Positions 12,525 to 29,536 of a stretch of 45,497 bases of DNA are shown piece by piece. The stretch comes from a virus, in the UHGV virus genome UHGV-0106598. The stretch is one strand, 5' to 3'. A program made the position numbers and the translations under genes. The notes under the pieces are model-generated. The model was given only the letters and a program-made list of their open reading frames with translations. It did no database searches and was not told the origin of the DNA. Position 1 is the stretch's first letter, and the number at the start of each line of letters is the position of its first letter.

Positions 12525-12903
12525 CAGGTTGTTTGGGGCGGAAATACTCTATTTGCGCTTAGGATACTTGTTAGCTACTTCCACTTTTGTCACAAAGCGG
12601 ACTATCTGGCTGAGCTGAGGGTCCGCAGTGAGTGAGGATCGAATATTTAAGCGTCGGTACTGATGACGGATTTGAGGTATTTAAAATATTACAGGAGCTA
12701 GTGTGGATGTGACAGACATAAAAGTGGATGCAGTCAGAAAAGATATATGTATAGCAGGCTTCTTCGAGGACTAGATCAATCAATAAGATTTAGATAAAAT
12801 TGCAGTGTTAAATAAAAAGACTAGTAGTATTTAAACTTTAAGTGCGTTAGTAAAGTCGTGCAATTATATAAAACTAACGTTTTCTGAATGTTTGGAGAGT
12901 AAA

Positions 12904-13599
12904 ATGTTAGAACCGCCAAAGAATTATAATGAAATGTTACCCATGCTCCATAAGGCAACTTTTATTACTACATTTATATTTTACCTATCATTGGTTATTT
13001 ATGGCTACATACCATTGGTTGGCATTAATGCCAAGTACATTCCACCAATCAAAGACTACGAAGAATTTATTAAGTGGATATTAACATTCGGCATATTACC
13101 AATTGCATTCTCAATTTTTTGGTCTGTGATTAGTGGGGCTTTAGATCTACATAATAACGTGGCAAAAATTCTTGGAATAAGAAAAGCATGGGATAATTAC
13201 TTGATTGTTAAACCATTGGCGCAAGTTGCAGGCATTACAAGAAAATTAACTAGTGATGAATCCTCCAAAGTAATGAACAAACTGTATTACCCAGAAGTTA
13301 ATGAGTTAAAAGATAAACATTATGTTGAGCTCTTCTGGAATAAGGTTTATTACTTTTGGGTTTTCTTTGAACATACTGTGATTGCATTTATTACTGTTTT
13401 AGTAATAAGTTTTGCTAAAATAACCCATTTACTCTCTGTAACCGGTTCTTTAAAAAATCTTTGGTTGTGGGTTATTTTTATTGTTGTCTTTAATTTTCTT
13501 ATTTTTATTGCATCCGTTAAACCCAGAACTGAAGGCCAAGTCAGACAAATACCTGATGATAAGATAAAGGAATTTTTTAATAATAACAGTATTTTTTAA
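12904..13599 (+). CDS. Integral membrane protein (about 4 predicted transmembrane helices), unknown function
   Basis: GGAGAG ribosome-binding site before the ATG at 12904 (track ORF starts at an upstream non-ATG codon); four long hydrophobic segments; AT-rich codon usage; stop adjacent to the next gene's ATG. Confidence 0.5.
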   Translation: MLEPPKNYNEMLPMLHKATFITTFIFYLSLVIYGYIPLVGINAKYIPPIKDYEEFIKWILTFGILPIAFSIFWSVISGALDLHNNVAKILGIRKAWDNYLIVKPLAQVAGITRKLTSDESSKVMNKLYYPEVNELKDKHYVELFWNKVYYFWVFFEHTVIAFITVLVISFAKITHLLSVTGSLKNLWLWVIFIVVFNFLIFIASVKPRTEGQVRQIPDDKIKEFFNNNSIF

Positions 13600-14265
13600 A
13601 TGAGGTTAGTTTTGAATTACAAAATAAATGGAATGACTATACGTTCAGAAAATGCAGCAAAACCGCATACTATGCCATCTAACTATCTCTGTAACCATAT
13701 TGAAAATTCTGTTAAAAATGGCATGGCCCTTGATTTCGGATGTGGAAAGCTTAGATATTCAGAACAATTAGTAAATAAATTTGAAGCTGTGACATTTTTA
13801 GATTCCAGAAAACAGTTAGAAAGAGTGCAAATTATCAGAGGCGTACAAACCACAATTCCAGAGTATGTGGCTAATAATTATAAAAATGCTAATGTTGTCC
13901 CTTTTGAAAGTATAGATAAAATAAAAGATAATTATGATTTCATACTTTGCGCAAACGTGCTTTCCGCAATTCCATGCAAATCAACAATTTACAAAATCAT
14001 CAATGAGATTGGGAGATTATTAAAAAATGATGGTGAAGCAATTATTGTTAATCAATACAAAAGCTCTTATTTCAAAAAGTATGAGACTGGAATTAAACAT
14101 TTGCATGGATATATATACCAAAACTCTCGCAATGCTTTCTATTATGGCTTATTGGATGAGAATATTGTAAGTAAAATTTGCTTAGATAACAATTTAGCAG
14201 TAATAAAGTCATGGAGCAAAGCTGGCAGTTCATATGTGGTTGTTGGTAAAAATAAACATAATTAG
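13600..14265 (+). CDS. Class I SAM-dependent methyltransferase-like protein (small-molecule/RNA/protein type, not a typical DNA methyltransferase)
   Basis: Motif I LDFGCGKL, acidic residue about 17 aa later (FLDS), motif DFILCANVLSAIP; no DPPY/NPPY-type DNA methyltransferase motif seen. Confidence 0.5.
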   Translation: MRLVLNYKINGMTIRSENAAKPHTMPSNYLCNHIENSVKNGMALDFGCGKLRYSEQLVNKFEAVTFLDSRKQLERVQIIRGVQTTIPEYVANNYKNANVVPFESIDKIKDNYDFILCANVLSAIPCKSTIYKIINEIGRLLKNDGEAIIVNQYKSSYFKKYETGIKHLHGYIYQNSRNAFYYGLLDENIVSKICLDNNLAVIKSWSKAGSSYVVVGKNKHN

Positions 14266-14592
14266 TAAATTTAAAAATAATATTAGAGGGTGCCATTTTC
14301 TTATTACTTATTAACTCGCTGGGGTAGGGGCAACACGCCCCACCTCATCAAGTTACTGCAGGATTATAGACTTTTGTCAAAACGTTGGAAAAATTCAGTA
14401 CAAACTTTTCCATGTTTTTCCTAATCATAGATAATGATGCTCACTTATGTTAACAACTTCTTGTACATAACGGTCTTCTTCAACAGGACAGCTATAAGTG
14501 AAGAAATAAAGTCGATAAACAATAAAGAGGCTCCAAATAAATATTATTCAATGAAGCCTGCTGTTTATTATTTGTTATTATTAAATCGCTAC

Positions 14593-15492
14593 TTATAATT
14601 CAACAATTTTTAGTATTATATCAATATTATTTAGCCTTGCAATCTCTGATGAATCGTTTGCAATTTTATCTTTTAAATTATCAATGTTAATCATATCTTC
14701 AGAGCTAATACAAACCATATCACCTTGGTTAACTTTTGATTTGTTCACTATGGCTTGAATAACAGACAGATCGTCCATTACACCTCTCAGGAATTTAACC
14801 ATGCTTTGATCCTTGAAATCAGATATCGATTTTGAACGTTGCTTACGTTGGATTGTTCCTTTTGTAATTATTTCGTTAATTTCTTTTAAACCGGCAAGCA
14901 TATCAGATATGCTTCCTTCGCAACTCATCCTGTGTTTAATAGCATTGCGATTAATAACATTGAGTATTATTTCGAGTGAATCTCTATCATCCCATGGCGA
15001 TAATAATGTATAATCCTGATGGCGATGAATGGCATCAAGCATATCAAGGATCATATTTTCATCTGCTTTATCGCAAAGTTCATTTACAAAATAGCTGGGG
15101 TCGATTACTTTACAATAACTTGGAACTGAGCATTTTGAGCTTTTACAAAACCCAAAAATATATAAAAAAGGGTATATGTCTTTTAGACTCTTTCCTGATT
15201 TATTTTCTTTTTCAAAGGCTGCGATTGTTTTTTTAATTTTTGCCGGGGTTGCTTTCGTTGTAACTTGAACTGCTATCATGTTTTTATTGTCAGCTAAATC
15301 AATGGCGGGAAAGTTAACTTTAATCTGATTCATGTTTTCCAGTCCCCCCATTTTCAGTGCGCGAAACATATAAATGGTCAATGACTCAATCATTCTTTCC
15401 ATGTCATGAAAGCCAGTCTGTTTGCGTTGTTCGATATAAAGCTGAAGTAGCGCAATATCTTTCTGTAAGTTACTAATAACTGGGGCAATCAT
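14593..15492 (-). CDS. Hypothetical protein with an Rx4H (HEPN-like) motif; candidate abortive-infection-type RNase
   Basis: 299-aa ORF with AAGGA ribosome-binding site; RNAIKH at residues 182-187; N-terminal NFPAIDLADNKNMIAVQVTT region resembles what I recall of SMEK-type N-terminal domains (tentative). Confidence 0.45.
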   Translation of the reverse strand: MIAPVISNLQKDIALLQLYIEQRKQTGFHDMERMIESLTIYMFRALKMGGLENMNQIKVNFPAIDLADNKNMIAVQVTTKATPAKIKKTIAAFEKENKSGKSLKDIYPFLYIFGFCKSSKCSVPSYCKVIDPSYFVNELCDKADENMILDMLDAIHRHQDYTLLSPWDDRDSLEIILNVINRNAIKHRMSCEGSISDMLAGLKEINEIITKGTIQRKQRSKSISDFKDQSMVKFLRGVMDDLSVIQAIVNKSKVNQGDMVCISSEDMINIDNLKDKIANDSSEIARLNNIDIILKIVEL

Positions 15493-16025
15493 AGCTAATA
15501 ATCCTTTTCAATTAAGTAGGGGATGTGTTTGAGCTTCTTTATTTGACTGTTAGTTTAATTTCTTGTTTTCATATTAACAAGCTCTACAATTTTATCAAGA
15601 TTTCTCAAAAACTAATCCTCCGTGTAAATCCACTAACTATGCTGAATTTATTCCGCTGTAAAACATGTCCGCTCATGGCTGTGAGTTCAACGGGTCGATG
15701 CAACGCCATCCACTCAGTAAAATTGTGTAATTCCAGTGAGCAGGCGAATCTTCAGTATGCTCTAGTTTCTTACTCACACCTGCTTATGCTTTAACTAGGT
15801 ACAATGTAGATAAACTCTCATGTTGATTTATCGCCATGATCACATTTCCGGAAGAAAAATTTTGTTTGTAACCTTGCTAGATGAGACAGTATAGATATCA
15901 TTACATATGAAACAGTACATTAGGGAACACTGAAGGCCGTAACTTTAAAAAATATAATTAATTGTACATAATTTTATAACAATCAAGATGGTGGCAATTA
16001 TATAAGTAATAATAAGGGGTGATTA

Positions 16026-17378
16026 ATGATTAAATTCACAGAAAAGGAAATACAAAATTACATATGGGAAAATAGGAACAATTTTCCCGAACTGCTTATT
16101 GAACCTGCAGGTCTTGAAGTACTTGAATTCAACGAAGATCTCTCTGATGTAACAGCACAACTGCTAATAAAAAACAGAATAAATAGTAAACTATCCAATC
16201 TTCACTCTAAGCTTTATGGACTGGAATTTATCGGCTGCGAAGTTCCTTTAGAACAAAATTCAAACTCAACAATTAGAGCCGATTTTTTGGCTATATTCTG
16301 TGATGATACTGGGCTTGCTGTCATAGAGCTTAAAAAAAGTGAACAAACTGAAAGGCAAGCATTCACTGAATTGTTAGCATATTCAAACCATATGACAACA
16401 TTATTTCCATCCATGACGAAAAATGACAGTGTGTATATTTTAATATCACCAATGGAAACCAGAATAGCACGTGATGCTGTCATCCAAAGTTTAATATTTG
16501 ACAATAGGGATATCATTGCTTTAATTCCAACATTCTCTGATCCTCTTGATATTACCTCTCTTAAACTTGAATTATGGATTCCAGACCAAACAGAGTTAGC
16601 GACTTTCTCAAATATTGCATTTAGAGAAGATAATTTTAGTGTCTGTAAATTATCCTGGGAGTATGACGCAGAGCGATGGGATGCAGCTAGAGGAGAAGAA
16701 CTTTTACATTCATTTGTTAGTCAATTTGATAACATTTCCTGCCTTGCAGCTCAGTATATGGAAGAATCTGGAGTTCATGGTTTTACTTATTGCTCTCAGT
16801 TATGGCCTGAATTATCTCAGGCATTACCTTTTACGAATTCATTAGTACTAGTTGGCATGAATCCTTATGCTGTCGGGAGTGTCCAGCATTTATCCACAGA
16901 AGACGACAACTATGATGATATTCCAGACCCAAATTCTTACACTCCTCACATATCTGAATTAATTGGTAAACTAGGTGAAGGAGAACTATATGAGGCTAAT
17001 ATTGATGTCCTAAGTGGTTTACATTGTACATGGATCTCTCAATTATATCGTATAGGTAAGCAGGTAATTGAACTCACCACTAGAAATACAGATGGGAAAT
17101 ACGTCCACGTTGAATATGGCTTTATGAATTGGGAAATCTATCAAAGGTCTCTACTTGAGGATGTTTTCTGTAATAACTTCGCTATTAGGTCTACAGGTTT
17201 AATACGACATCTCTATACTGACATTCTTAAATTAGATTATGATTTTTGTAAGAATAACGGATTGGAAAACCACCCTCTTCATGGAGACATGCCATACTTA
17301 GGCGTCAATTTCCTTAAATCCCACCAGCACTTTAGAAAATTTATTTTGCGAATGTTCTATGCCGAAATAGATGCGTAG
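16026..17378 (+). CDS. Hypothetical protein with N-terminal PD-(D/E)xK-like nuclease motif and about 340-aa C-terminal region of unknown function
   Basis: 450-aa ORF with AAGGGGTGA ribosome-binding site; E72 ... D86 ... E101-L-K103 in IRADFLAIFCDDTGLAVIELKK fits the restriction-endonuclease-like fold motif. Confidence 0.4.
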   Translation: MIKFTEKEIQNYIWENRNNFPELLIEPAGLEVLEFNEDLSDVTAQLLIKNRINSKLSNLHSKLYGLEFIGCEVPLEQNSNSTIRADFLAIFCDDTGLAVIELKKSEQTERQAFTELLAYSNHMTTLFPSMTKNDSVYILISPMETRIARDAVIQSLIFDNRDIIALIPTFSDPLDITSLKLELWIPDQTELATFSNIAFREDNFSVCKLSWEYDAERWDAARGEELLHSFVSQFDNISCLAAQYMEESGVHGFTYCSQLWPELSQALPFTNSLVLVGMNPYAVGSVQHLSTEDDNYDDIPDPNSYTPHISELIGKLGEGELYEANIDVLSGLHCTWISQLYRIGKQVIELTTRNTDGKYVHVEYGFMNWEIYQRSLLEDVFCNNFAIRSTGLIRHLYTDILKLDYDFCKNNGLENHPLHGDMPYLGVNFLKSHQHFRKFILRMFYAEIDA

Positions 17379-18107
17379 TGAGATTTTTTAATTTATCTCT
17401 GCTGGAGAAAATTCATGGGTGAGGAAAGAGATAGATAATATTGAAAATAAAATCTTCAAAAGATGTGGAAATAAAAACATGATCTAAATTTTTTTGGCAT
17501 TCATTTCATATGAAACAGTCCTTCTAAAAAACTATACAGGCATGGATGATATTTTTTATGATTTTTTAGTTGTAATTTATCTTTACTATATAATATATGG
17601 GGGGATTGTCGCCAGCTATTCACCGACTATCAAATATCAATAACTCCTGGCTGTTCTGTAAGGTATAGACATACAAATCGGCCTGAAGATTACGGATAGT
17701 TTCTTAAGGTCCGTTCCTGGCACAAAGTGGACTGTCAAATTAAATTCGGCTCCACGCCATAGATGTGTCAGCTCATATCTTATCTAATACACACAATAAT
17801 TCTCTCATTCTTAGAGAATTATTCTTTTTAGGCTAGATGTTGACGTTAGAACAAAAGAATAGATATTTTTGATATTTATTACATTGGAGCTAAAGTACCG
17901 CCCATGTACAACTGGAGCGTTTGCTGATGGTATCGCATTATCTTGCAGAGGACGCACGCAGGTTAAATAAAACAAGCATATGTGCCTGGTTTTTGTAATA
18001 TTGGGTATAACATATGCTTTATAGGGGCGAGCTCAATGACCAACCGAGAAAGAATCTCCTGCCAGATACAGTTATTTTCACCCTCTCCATAACATAAGGG
18101 AGTTTTT

Positions 18108-18656
18108 ATGTCGGAAGTGAGTATCGTAGAAGACGACCCACGGCCAGTAGTCGCCGAATTGGCAGATCTGTTACAAGCACGACCATTTCATCAGAATCAA
18201 TATGATAACTTATGTCGCTTTATGATTTATTTTTCCTTGGCTGAATCAAAATTAACATCAATGGCTGCTGGCCTTGGTGGAACTGACGCACTGGCACAGG
18301 AACTAGTTGTGCATAACGGTATGGACAGTCAGGCCATAGATGATTGCTATCGTTATTTTATACGACGCTATCGAGACAGCCCTGATAGCGATTACCGCTT
18401 CAATAAACTAGCCCCACCTGAGTATGTTAAGAATGCAATCAGAGGACGCTTTGTTACGCTACTTCAGATACAGTCTCCAACAATTGAAGATAAAATCAGC
18501 TTTGTGTTCAAAGTGATTTTTAGGTTACGGCATAATCTTTTCCATGGAGAAAAATGGTCTTACAACCTTGAAGACCAGGAAGCTAATTTTTCACATGCTA
18601 ACAATGTACTACTATCCTGTTTGACTCTTACTCGCGGGAATATGTGGCACCCTTGA
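18108..18656 (+). CDS. Hypothetical protein with Rx4H motif (possible HEPN-like)
   Basis: 182-aa ORF with strong AAGGGAG ribosome-binding site; RHNLFH at residues 141-146. Confidence 0.4.
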   Translation: MSEVSIVEDDPRPVVAELADLLQARPFHQNQYDNLCRFMIYFSLAESKLTSMAAGLGGTDALAQELVVHNGMDSQAIDDCYRYFIRRYRDSPDSDYRFNKLAPPEYVKNAIRGRFVTLLQIQSPTIEDKISFVFKVIFRLRHNLFHGEKWSYNLEDQEANFSHANNVLLSCLTLTRGNMWHP

Positions 18657-19013
18657 ATCCTGGATGGATATTACGCATCGTCTGATAAGGGGTATCCAGA
18701 TGTGGCTTGCAAAGAATTCCTTAGCATGCCTGTTATCGTAGAGGCGATCCTGCGCAAGCAGCCAGCGGAGTACCTGCATCTAGCGCAGACCAGTTGCACT
18801 CAAACCGACTTCATTATCAAACACTATTATTTTTAGCGACTACTTACTACATCTAGTGGTAGTCGAAATATAATAACCTGCATATAGTGATTTTCGTTGT
18901 TTAAGTGCTTGACAATTCTGCACATGGCATTTAACGGTGTCTGTGGTAAACTATCCACAGAATAGTAAACAGTGTTGGATTGTGGATAATCGTCGGATAT
19001 ATGGGGAGGATAA

Positions 19014-19208
19014 ATGGCTAAATATGAACTTCGACCACTGTCAGATAGCCGTAAGGCTGACATTGCTCGCAGTGCATTAGCACAAAATAGAGCCCCTGCT
19101 AAGCCTGCTGTTTCAATGTCTTCTGGCTCGGCTTCAATACAGAGATCACGAGATACTGCGCGAGTAATGATGGATCGTGCATTCAGGACAGTTGTAGCCA
19201 AAGGATAA
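19014..19208 (+). CDS. Hypothetical small protein
   Basis: 64-aa ORF with GGAGG ribosome-binding site and a clean terminator directly downstream; DnaA-box-like sequences upstream. Confidence 0.45.
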   Translation: MAKYELRPLSDSRKADIARSALAQNRAPAKPAVSMSSGSASIQRSRDTARVMMDRAFRTVVAKG

Positions 19209-19227
19209 TTTTACTTTAGTTGATTAA

Positions 19228-19252
19228 AGCGCCTTTTTCTGGCGCTTTTTTA
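19228..19252 (+). terminator. Rho-independent terminator (AGCGCC-TTTTTCT-GGCGCT followed by TTTTT)
   Basis: Seen in sequence, just after the stop of the 64-aa gene. Confidence 0.6.
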
Positions 19253-19267
19253 TTGCGGATAAACCAA

Positions 19268-19948
19268 ATGGAAAAGCTCTGGGTTTTTACTCAATTAGTT
19301 ACAGGGAAAGATGACACCTCTGGCTTTTTGGCTTACTCGCTTTATAAGCACGACAAAAATGAATATGCCGAGAAGTTGCGCAGTAGTGGCGAATATACAG
19401 AAGACTATATTAACGCCCAACTGAAGATCTTTCATGAGCAGACAGTTAACTCGCCAGGCCGAATTGAGTCTTACAAAGAAAAAGCAGAAGACATCGTCAC
19501 AAACTTAACAGACCAGATAGATGCTGACATCCGGCTTGAGTACGATGCACAGTTAGCCGGTGCTAACTTGCAGGATGTTGAAATAGAACGGCTGAAAGCA
19601 GAAATACAGGCTATGAAAGCATCACGTGAGAACGAGTTAAGGAAGGCTGGAGAGGATGCTATTCTCAATTTTCATCGCATGGTTGAAATCACCCAGGCAC
19701 GCAAACGTGGGCGCGTTTCCCGCTCGTTAGGATGGTACTGGAATGGGTTTGCCAGCATTTTCGCCACAATAACCTTCGCTGTTATTGTCTATGGTATTTG
19801 TACTTGGGCATTACCACAAAAATCCAGAGACGACATTGTGGATGGGGCGTTTAAAAATCTGCAGGGATCGTTATTCCAGCAGCCAAACATTCAGTTTAAT
19901 AAAGACAAAAATGAGAACGCTCAGCAACCTAACACAATTGCCGAATAG
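19268..19948 (+). CDS. Hypothetical membrane-anchored protein (coiled-coil region plus one C-terminal transmembrane segment)
   Basis: Start taken at the internal Met (MEKLW) because the upstream part of the track ORF overlaps the terminator; hydrophobic segment FASIFATITFAVIVYGICTWAL. Confidence 0.4.
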   Translation: MEKLWVFTQLVTGKDDTSGFLAYSLYKHDKNEYAEKLRSSGEYTEDYINAQLKIFHEQTVNSPGRIESYKEKAEDIVTNLTDQIDADIRLEYDAQLAGANLQDVEIERLKAEIQAMKASRENELRKAGEDAILNFHRMVEITQARKRGRVSRSLGWYWNGFASIFATITFAVIVYGICTWALPQKSRDDIVDGAFKNLQGSLFQQPNIQFNKDKNENAQQPNTIAE

Positions 19949-20084
19949 TATCTCCGCGATGCCCCGAAGCCTCACCTTTTCGCGGGACTTTCCTTTCCTG
20001 GTGATTGACATAATTACCAATTTCTGAATACCGTTTTCAACGGTACCGGACACCCAGGTGACGGTGAAACGTGAAGTAAAGGTG

Positions 20085-20103
20085 AAACCCCTCAGAAGAG
20101 GGG
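20085..20103 (-). terminator. Hairpin (CCCCTC-AGAA-GAGGGG) between convergent genes, likely terminating the minus-strand gene
   Basis: Seen in sequence; modestly T-rich tract follows on the minus strand. Confidence 0.4.
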
Positions 20104-20109
20104 CTACTC

Positions 20110-27732: not shown

Positions 27733-27965
27733 TGACGTCGCGCGAGGTTTTAACAGAACGACTGCTGGAAGCGGAAATCGCTCTGCACAAATTATTAACG
27801 GGTAAATCGACCGTGTCGCTGTCTCACGGCGATTCAGCAGGAAATAACCGGAGCTATCAATACTCGCAGGCGAGTATTGAGCAGCTCCGAACGTACATTA
27901 TCGAGCTGAAATCACAGCTCGGTCTGAGTACGGGACGCCGTCGGCCCGTGGGAGTTCGATTATGA
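27732..27965 (+). CDS. Head-tail joining protein, lambda gpW-like
   Basis: 77-aa ORF; LHKLLTGKSTVSL ... EQLRTYIIELKSQLGLSTGRRRPVG parallels recalled lambda W. Confidence 0.8.
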   Translation: MTSREVLTERLLEAEIALHKLLTGKSTVSLSHGDSAGNNRSYQYSQASIEQLRTYIIELKSQLGLSTGRRRPVGVRL

Positions 27966-29536
27966 CTGCTCCGCAGCAGCTGCTCGGGCCTGACGGTAAA
28001 ACGCCACTACGCCGTTACGCGGGGTATAACGGCGGCGGTCCCGGTTTCGGTGGCCAGCTGATTGACTGGAACGCACCACAGCAGAGCGCCGACGCAGCAC
28101 TGTTGCCGAATTTTTATCGCGGTAACGCGCGAGCAGACGATCTCGTTCGCAATAACGGCGTCGCGTCGAACGCCGTGCAGCTGCACCAGGATCATATCGT
28201 CGGCAATCTGTTTAAGTTGAGTTATCGCCCTAACTGGCGTTACCTCGGCATATCTCGCGAGGACGCCAGGGCGCTGGCGCGTGACGTCGAGGTAGCGTGG
28301 ACTGAATACGCCGAGGACCCTCACTGCACGATTGATATCGAGCGGAAACGGACGTTCACAATGATGATCCGCGAGGGCGTGGCTACTCACGCTTTCAACG
28401 GTGAAACCTGCGTACAACCAGTCTGGGAGAGTAGTGCCGGCAGCGTTTTTCGGACGCGATTCAAAATGGTCTCACCGAAACGGATTCGAAATCCGGGTTA
28501 CGCAGCTGACACTCAATTTCGCCGCGCCGGTGTTGATATCGATAAAAACGGGGCCGCGGTCGGGTACTGGATAGCCGAGGATACTTACCCTCTCGGCGGA
28601 GTCGGTAAATGCCGGCGTATCCCAGCATAGCTCAGCAGCGGCAGACACGCATTCATCCACATATTCGAGCCGCTCGAGGACGGACAGACCCGCGGGGACA
28701 ATATTTTTTACAGCGTCATGGAGCGCCTGAAAATGCTCGACACACTGCAGCAAACACAACTGCAGAGCGCCATTGTGAAGGCGATGTATGCCGCGACAAT
28801 CGAATCAGAGCTCGACAGCCAGCAGGCGTTTGAATATATCGCCGGCGCGGGTACTGATATCGACTCGAACCCGCTGAATTCGTTTATTCAGAGTTACGTG
28901 ACGTACTACAACGGCGCAAATATCAAGCTCGGTGGTGTGAAAGTTCCCCACCTGCATCCCGGCGACAAACTCAGTTTACAGACCGCTCAGAATGCTGATG
29001 CTGGTTTTAGTTCACTGGAAAAATCACTCCTGCGTTACGTTGCAGCTGGCGTTGGCGCGTCATACGAAGAACTTAGCCGGGACTACAGCCAGGTCAGTTA
29101 CTCCAGCGCCCGGGCCAGTGCTAACGTCAGCTGGCGATTTTTCATGGGGCGTCGACGTTTTATCGCCGCGCGACAGGCGTCGCTGATGTTCTGCTGCTGG
29201 TTTGAAGAGGCGCTGGCACGCGGAATTATCACCCTGCCACGCTCAGCTGTCCGGTCGTTTTATGAGGCGCGGAACTCCTGGACGAACGCGCTCTGGATCG
29301 GCGCTGGTCGCATGGCGATTGATGGGCTGAAAGAGGTTCAGGAGAGCGCCATGCGCATCACAACTGGCCTCAGCACGTATCAGAACGAACTGGCGCTGCA
29401 GGGACAGGATTACGAGGAGGTTATGGAGCAGCAGGAATACGAAATTCAGCGCCGGCGTGAAATGGGGCTGAGCGAACCGTCATGGTCTGTATCTCACCCC
29501 TCAAATACCAACGATAACGGCTGGGGAGGTAACTGA
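27962..29536 (+). pseudogene. Portal protein gene (lambda gpB-like) interrupted by one in-frame TAG at 28628-28630
   Basis: Track ORFs 27962-28630 and 28718-29536 are in the same frame; translation right after the TAG continues LSSGRHAFIHIFEPLEDGQTRGDNIFYSVMERLKMLDTLQ, matching recalled lambda gpB (FIHVFEPVEDGQTRGANVFYSVMEQMKMLDTLQ) with no other stop. Confidence 0.85.

Follow-up and report, generated by a model that had tools for sequence, protein, structure and literature searches.

What does a rare gene, annotated only as a hypothetical protein and embedded in AT-rich DNA, do for the prophage that carries it? The gene in question lies on the plus strand, at positions 16026-17378, of a 45,497-nt stretch of DNA (UHGV virus genome UHGV-0106598), hereafter the window, which is a lambdoid prophage in Escherichia coli with its integration site beside tRNA-Leu/pgsA, and which is 100% identical to the record of E. 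coli EC28. Its product of 450 residues is complete and corresponds to WP_097478788.1 of that strain. A ribosome-binding site, AAGGGG (16014-16019, plus strand), is located 6 nt ahead of the ATG, and a sigma-70-like promoter candidate, TTTAAA-17-CATAAT (15944-15972, plus strand), is proposed from its match to the consensus alone. The GC content drops to 31-35% at ~13-18 kb, the target gene included, against ~50% in the surroundings, and the gene is carried by five of 5,426 complete E. coli genomes. The portal gene of the prophage (window ~27962-29536) is a pseudogene with an internal stop according to the identical EC28 annotation, and thus the prophage may be defective yet keep its cargo.

Function could not be assigned to the 450-aa protein from PADLOC v2 (2023), Pfam (2025) or NCBIfam (2026): the NCBIfam scan gave no match and the PADLOC scan no significant one. 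Likewise, no match was obtained by tblastn against 50,697 phage genomes or in PDB sequence searches with full-length and N-domain profiles; the PHROGs match, phrog_30092, has no function given there, and a literature search by accession returned no paper naming the protein. The database search did provide 232 homologs, and the family has a patchy distribution that takes in at least eight phyla and one archaeal metagenome-assembled genome. The best 120 homologs are mostly full-length (~430-480 aa); no Pfam domain is assigned to any of them, and hardly any bears a name. The ~340-aa and ~250-aa proteins retrieved with profiles of the single domains are truncated gene calls or pseudogenes, and not PDC-S11. 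Many homologs located on long contigs are cut to 190-325 aa (P0229, P0039, P0207, P0217 and P0222), for instance a 252-aa copy in Ensifer and a 324-aa copy in Pectobacterium versatile, which suggests frequent pseudogenisation, as expected of a costly or toxic gene. At the other extreme, the divergent members P0164, P0169 and P0145 have C-terminal extensions of 60-115 aa, two of them Cys-rich and possibly zinc-binding.

The first-pass annotation of this locus had read the gene as a nuclease, with a PD-(D/E)xK-like N-terminus built on E72, D86 and E101-x-K103. The open reading frame is real, and we evaluated the motif in two alignments, one of 38 homologs with 36-90% identity, and one of 24 sequences including the most divergent, down to 23% identity. 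First, D86, E101 and K103 (codons 16281-16283, 16326-16328 and 16332-16334, span 16281-16334, plus strand) are invariant in both alignments, and this part of the earlier motif therefore stands. Second, E72 (16239-16241, plus strand) is invariant among the 38 members, so its conservation is that of the core family only; it is replaced by K, D or R in the four divergent members P0161, P0164, P0179 and P0199. Third, E6, R110, Y119, P186, E246, N279-P280 and G391 are also invariant to 23% identity. We therefore regard the D...ExK assignment as sound and E72 as a weaker catalytic candidate. E6 (16041-16043, plus strand), in the motif E-x-x-I-Q-x-x-I-W of the first helix, is invariant in the family as a whole, unlike E72; judging from this conservation, it may be either a helix-borne acidic active-site residue or an interface residue.

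The structural model agrees with this reading. AlphaFold2, run on the 38-sequence alignment (pLDDT 88.4, pTM 0.88), predicts helix 44-63, strands 66-77, 81-91 and 97-102, helix 106-126 and strand 135-140, that is, the canonical alpha-beta-beta-beta-alpha-beta core over residues 44-140, with D86 on strand 2 and E101/K103 ending strand 3. The core fold and the D...(D/E)-x-K arrangement on strands 2 and 3 are those that define the PD-(D/E)xK superfamily, and the structure check that the first-pass annotation had called for thus came out in its favour, with the NucS nuclease domain as the top structural match over 103 aligned residues. Sub-threshold profile matches fall on the same stretch: Pfam HSDR_N on residues 76-127 (E 0.0027; recurring in 26 of the 38 members), and the PADLOC models REase_II and PDC-S11, the latter being the one most often matched, weakly, by the catalytic core of the family (8/38 members). 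PADLOC matches to 'typeIV_Cas10' (4/38 members), considered as a sign of a palm/cyclase C-domain, were dropped as marginal; in P0108, the one inspected, the match covers nuclease-domain residues 79-188 (E 7e-4). Residues 1-185 (16026-16580, plus strand) are thus delimited as a NucS-like PD-(D/E)xK nuclease domain, and we infer from motif and model that the protein is an active DNA endonuclease.

The remaining 265 residues (186-450; 16581-17375, plus strand) form an acidic alpha/beta domain, in which, as had been noted from the outset, no motif can be recognised: it has no Pfam match, and structure comparison gave no specific relative. Its predicted fold is a ferredoxin-like beta-alpha-beta-beta-alpha-beta core plus helices, with P186, E246, N279-P280 and G391 invariant and many aromatics conserved. 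The net charge of this domain ranges from -11 to -31 (mean -17.7) and is negative in 38 of 38 members. None of the modified-base readers EVE/PUA, SRA or EndoIII was retrieved by the structure comparison, and neither this comparison nor the Pfam scan detected CARF, SAVED, STAND or TPR folds; the idea of a second, degenerate nuclease was rejected, as no REase match appeared. A C-domain profile run against 1.84 billion representative proteins recovered 97 proteins, all with this architecture, and virtually all of them are ~430-480 aa long, with the domain starting at residue ~181-196. Conversely, a profile of the nuclease domain by itself found only the same family or truncated copies. Since the profile of each domain returns nothing but this architecture or its fragments, the two domains are a fixed pair, and the possibility that either is a shuffled module was rejected. 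The whole-chain pTM of 0.88 further suggests that the C-domain packs rigidly on the nuclease.

That the gene stands alone, as had also been proposed, is borne out by its neighbourhoods. When 706 neighbour ORFs of 70 homolog loci were clustered all against all, no family was present in more than five loci, and a conserved partner gene or operon was thus rejected. A cognate methyltransferase, as would qualify the gene for type II/IIS restriction-modification, is not conserved across the 70 loci; an adjacent methyltransferase is found only sporadically, and each such enzyme already has its own REase-like partner. In the window itself, the SAM methyltransferase at 13600-14265 was considered as a cognate enzyme and discarded, as it belongs to a separate module that is described below.

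Among known systems, two single-gene nucleases come closest. Madara (PDC-S11, from E. coli ECOR34) joins a NucS-like nuclease to an EVE-like domain and restricts T4(ghmC) but not T4(C); its D63A mutation abolishes defence, and the gene is silenced by H-NS (bioRxiv 10.64898/2026.09.05.749240). END-Mag joins a NucS-like PD-DExK nuclease to an inactive EndoIII, is encoded alone and restricts phages with modified G (PMC12191111). As in Madara, our protein is encoded by a single AT-rich gene without a methyltransferase, transcribed divergently from a neighbouring conflict gene, and in it a NucS-like nuclease makes up the N-terminus and precedes a C-terminal domain, which in Madara is the putative sensor. 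In addition, D86 would correspond approximately to PDC-S11 profile position 63, in a weak alignment of protein residues 68-126 to profile positions 45-97 that assumes no gaps. However, only ~55-65 residues of the 358-position PDC-S11 model align (about 43-104; E 2.6e-4 to 0.05), our protein is ~100 aa longer, and its C-domain is acidic and ferredoxin-like rather than EVE-like, and, in the model, seems to pack rigidly on the nuclease instead of being attached through a linker; this separation was drawn against the PDC-S11 profile and the description of Madara. With END-Mag the protein has in common the fusion of a NucS-like nuclease to a second domain, in a gene standing alone without a methyltransferase, but it lacks the inactive EndoIII/Ogg1 (HhH-GPD) domain of the END nucleases. 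In Shedu SduA (DUF4263; PDB 8ps4), the N-terminal domains vary and the nuclease comes last; our protein has the opposite order and a constant pair of domains, and DUF4263 was not matched in Pfam by the query or the 38 members. Can2/Card1 (CARF-nuclease), Cap4 (nuclease-SAVED) and NucC-type effectors differ in that our protein has neither CARF nor SAVED and no conserved cyclase or CRISPR partner, and Hachiman (HamA/HamB) in that no helicase HamB partner is conserved near it. By analogy, then, the protein would work like Madara, END-Mag and Shedu while being a member of none of them.

On balance, the protein is probably a self-contained nuclease against phages and other mobile elements, gated by its C-domain, and the gene, which moves by itself among mobile elements and defence islands, is probably an undescribed single-gene anti-phage system. 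In such a system, residues 1-185 would act as a metal-dependent NucS-type PD-(D/E)xK DNA endonuclease with D86, E101 and K103 as its catalytic core, and the C-domain would decide when, or on what, the nuclease acts. Since there is no methyltransferase, antitoxin or conserved partner, host DNA would be spared through the specificity of the C-domain, and not through host modification. The C-domain would then recognise a feature of invader DNA that is absent from the host, such as modified bases, unusual ends or structures, and, as Madara/PDC-S11 and END-Mag suggest by analogy, two nuclease domains would probably dimerise before cleavage. As cargo of prophages, satellites and defence islands, the cassette would protect its carrier against competing phages. 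The sub-mechanism that we favour by analogy, albeit tentatively, is direct methyltransferase-independent (type IV-like) restriction of DNA with a non-host feature. Three points argue against it: the C-domain resembles no modified-base reader, it is strongly acidic, and it is apparently rigidly packed. It is tempting to speculate, although we find it somewhat doubtful, that the C-domain represents a new class of infection-sensing module, rigidly coupled to the nuclease and recognising a cue other than those of EVE, SRA or EndoIII domains, which would make for a new form of single-gene immunity. The cue may be, for instance, a protein of the phage that binds DNA, a nucleotide bearing a sugar or another decoration, or a structural feature of DNA, and the modelled domain may offer it a conserved aromatic and acidic surface.

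The acidity of the C-domain in all members, its confident packing on the nuclease and its lack of resemblance to any known DNA or base reader would also suit an abortive-infection nuclease, the main rival reading, which we consider unlikely. Here, the acidic C-domain would auto-inhibit the enzyme, perhaps by lying in or over the DNA-binding groove as an intramolecular DNA mimic, until a phage protein or an infection cue releases it, with indiscriminate DNA degradation and cell death or arrest as the outcome. A stand-alone gene without methyltransferase or antitoxin is also typical of single-protein Abi systems, and the genomic contexts described below are the same for both readings. Nevertheless, none of the CARF, SAVED, STAND or TPR folds was detected, and the two closest validated analogues, Madara and END-Mag, are described as modification-dependent restriction, even if the authors of the former leave an abortive response open (bioRxiv 10.64898/2026.09.05.749240).

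To place the proposed anti-phage nuclease in its genomic setting, twelve contexts were read by hand. Eleven of them are mobile-element cargo slots or defence neighbourhoods, a count that describes a sample tallied without background control and carries no enrichment statistic. First, as mobile-element cargo, the gene is found in the accessory region that separates the replication genes from Q in the E. coli lambdoid prophage; between Ogr/Delta and the integrase of a P4-like satellite in Pectobacterium, a position that corresponds to psu-int, a defence hotspot described for P4-like elements; and right after Zot in integrated filamentous phages, both in Vibrio parahaemolyticus (10 contigs; L080-L082, 8001-9317 and 9398-10114) and in Pseudoalteromonas ruthenica (L083, 8001-9293). 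In the V. parahaemolyticus inovirus the homolog is followed by a 238-aa PLD-like protein. Second, homologs are located immediately upstream of KwaA/KwaB (Kiwa) in Vibrio crassostreae, or adjoin SIR2+HerA in Serratia, an OLD-family ATPase-TOPRIM nuclease in Priestia, a C5 methylase plus a partner gene in Aureibacter, a reverse transcriptase plus SIR2+HerA on a metagenomic contig, and a FokI-cleavage-domain protein and prophage lysis genes in a Bacillus-type genome; on a second metagenomic contig, the homolog comes directly after an N6/N4 methylase and a NotI-like enzyme. Third, the Aeromonas homolog is a lone insertion between transketolase and alcohol dehydrogenase genes, with no defence or mobile-element neighbours, which counts against the defence reading. 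PADLOC analysis of 125 neighbour proteins from 22 further loci, pooled without per-locus assignment or control, returned type IIG restriction-modification, Mokosh MkoA/MkoC, AbiLi, DRT-type reverse transcriptases, SAVED-HNH and SoFic among other families. The SIR2_2 + DUF87/HerA pairs just downstream of homologs from two unrelated genomes (L007, 12112-15032, in Serratia; L012, 12951-16033, metagenomic, with the reverse transcriptase in between) are probably a matter of co-residence in defence islands.

The mobility of the gene is apparent at the DNA level. The homolog of Serratia inhibens is 90% identical, and the DNA that its chromosomal island shares with the E. coli copy, at 82% identity, is confined to window positions 15702-17693 (plus strand), which delimits an autonomous cassette of ~2.0 kb, made up of the ORF and ~320 bp on each side. 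Within it, two 19-nt direct repeats with 18 of 19 positions identical bracket the ORF, two such matches being found in none of 100 shuffles. The upstream copy (15898-15916, plus strand), with a palindromic core (TTACATATGAAA), is conserved at 15 of 19 positions in Serratia, and the downstream copy (17501-17519, plus strand) contains the perfect 12-bp palindrome TTTCATATGAAA. Because the Serratia homology runs ~200 bp past both copies, the repeats cannot be insertion boundaries; they are internal and operator-like, rather than target-site duplications. Upstream, an AT-rich divergent promoter region of 533 bp is common to the target and the neighbouring SMEK gene, and we infer that it resembles the H-NS-silenced divergent arrangements of the Madara preprint. 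By the same analogy, H-NS probably keeps the AT-rich DNA of the cassette silent in E. coli.

A 2-kb cassette that rides on mobile elements of four kinds, and of which one lone copy sits between housekeeping genes in Aeromonas, could also encode a selfish or offensive nuclease that does not protect the host, and that would instead serve competition between elements, degradation of host DNA, addiction or the processing of the element's own DNA. This we consider quite improbable. Its carriers, a lambdoid phage, a P4-like satellite and inoviruses, have no relationship to one another, and in each of them the gene occupies the variable cargo slot, away from the core replication or packaging genes; it is also present in chromosomal islands by Kiwa, SIR2-HerA, OLD and restriction-modification genes, without phage genes, and the 70 loci reveal no tie to a specific host gene of the kind expected of homing endonucleases. 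Moreover, competition between elements overlaps with defence in practice.

The relationship with NucS/EndoMS, the mismatch endonuclease of archaea and actinobacteria (PDB 2vld and 5gke), from which the nuclease domain takes its nearest structural likeness, is one of fold only. Coupled with the label 'DUF91 domain-containing' that one database source gives to a homolog, this likeness could point to a housekeeping repair or recombination nuclease, acting on mismatches or branched DNA, but we hold such a role to be highly improbable. At the sequence level, neither the query nor any of the 38 members matches NucS (PF01939, DUF91) in Pfam at E<=0.1, nor is there such a match in the PDB. In NucS, a DNA-binding domain precedes the nuclease; in our protein the nuclease comes first, the other domain is unrelated, and the DNA-binding domain of NucS is absent, as only 103 residues align structurally. 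And whereas NucS is a vertically inherited repair gene, the target is rare mobile cargo, with its five carriers among 5,426 E. coli genomes, its patchy spread, its place in AT-rich foreign DNA of a prophage and its many truncated copies. Finally, a catalytically dead fold that does no more than bind DNA or act as a scaffold, a reading for which the variability of E72 could be invoked, is just as improbable, for inactivated PD-(D/E)xK domains normally lose their catalytic residues, and D86, E101, K103, R110 and Y119 are invariant to 23% identity.

All in all, the protein is a well-supported candidate for a new single-gene defence family. If this holds, it would represent the third independent arming of a NucS-type nuclease for immunity, after Madara (EVE-like domain) and END-Mag (inactive EndoIII), and would strengthen the idea that a repair-type nuclease core has been repeatedly recruited as a methyltransferase-free restriction module. 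Knowing the ligand of the C-domain could bring to light a new way of recognising foreign DNA or phage proteins, and possibly yield a new reagent to detect modified DNA. Should the C-domain indeed be a sensor of a new class, a single-gene immune system would extend across bacterial phyla on lambdoid phages, P4-like satellites and inoviruses. The latter seem under-explored as carriers of candidate defence nucleases, and carriage by inoviruses and in the E. coli prophage hotspot bears on predicting the failure of phage therapy. Nonetheless, this is a small and rare family, many stand-alone nucleases have already been proposed for defence, and current ideas are not overturned.

In the window, the gene marks a cargo hotspot (12525-20109) of a prophage backbone that is widespread in E. 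coli, flanked on one side by the ORF6N gene and on the other by a conserved block formed by a 77-aa gene, DUF1367, DUF1364 and Q. The low-GC core of this hotspot contains the target plus other accessory genes, and the same backbone is found in ~420 E. coli genomes, ST131 included, with entirely different cargo, namely, LprI-like, hypothetical and ImmA/IrrE genes. Downstream of the target, the cargo includes a 182-aa ORF (18108-18656; phrog_27260) and a 242-aa ORF with a C-terminal hydrophobic stretch (19220-19948; phrog_25194), both with no function given in PHROGs. Upstream, a module at 12892-15492 comprises three genes, one for a multi-pass membrane protein of 235 aa, a second, abutting it, for a class I SAM methyltransferase and, on the opposite strand, a third for a SMEK_N-domain protein that matches NCBIfam SMEK_N (3.6e-31) and PADLOC 'Aga_REase-PNTD' (1.5e-19); it is likely a conflict or defence module. 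This trio is present at ~84% identity in ~680 E. coli genomes that lack the target gene, where it belongs to Qin-like prophages and is flanked by the replication genes and hokD/rem/Q. A functional tie with the target was rejected on account of this independent occurrence at a different prophage position. Lastly, a non-coding segment of ~180 bp downstream of the target (~17709-17891), unannotated and, like the rest of the 12-21 kb region scanned, without a match in Rfam, is ~88% conserved in ~420 E. coli genomes, and in ST131 it is flanked by two cargo genes of this hotspot; it could act in regulation, encode a small RNA or mark a recombination junction.
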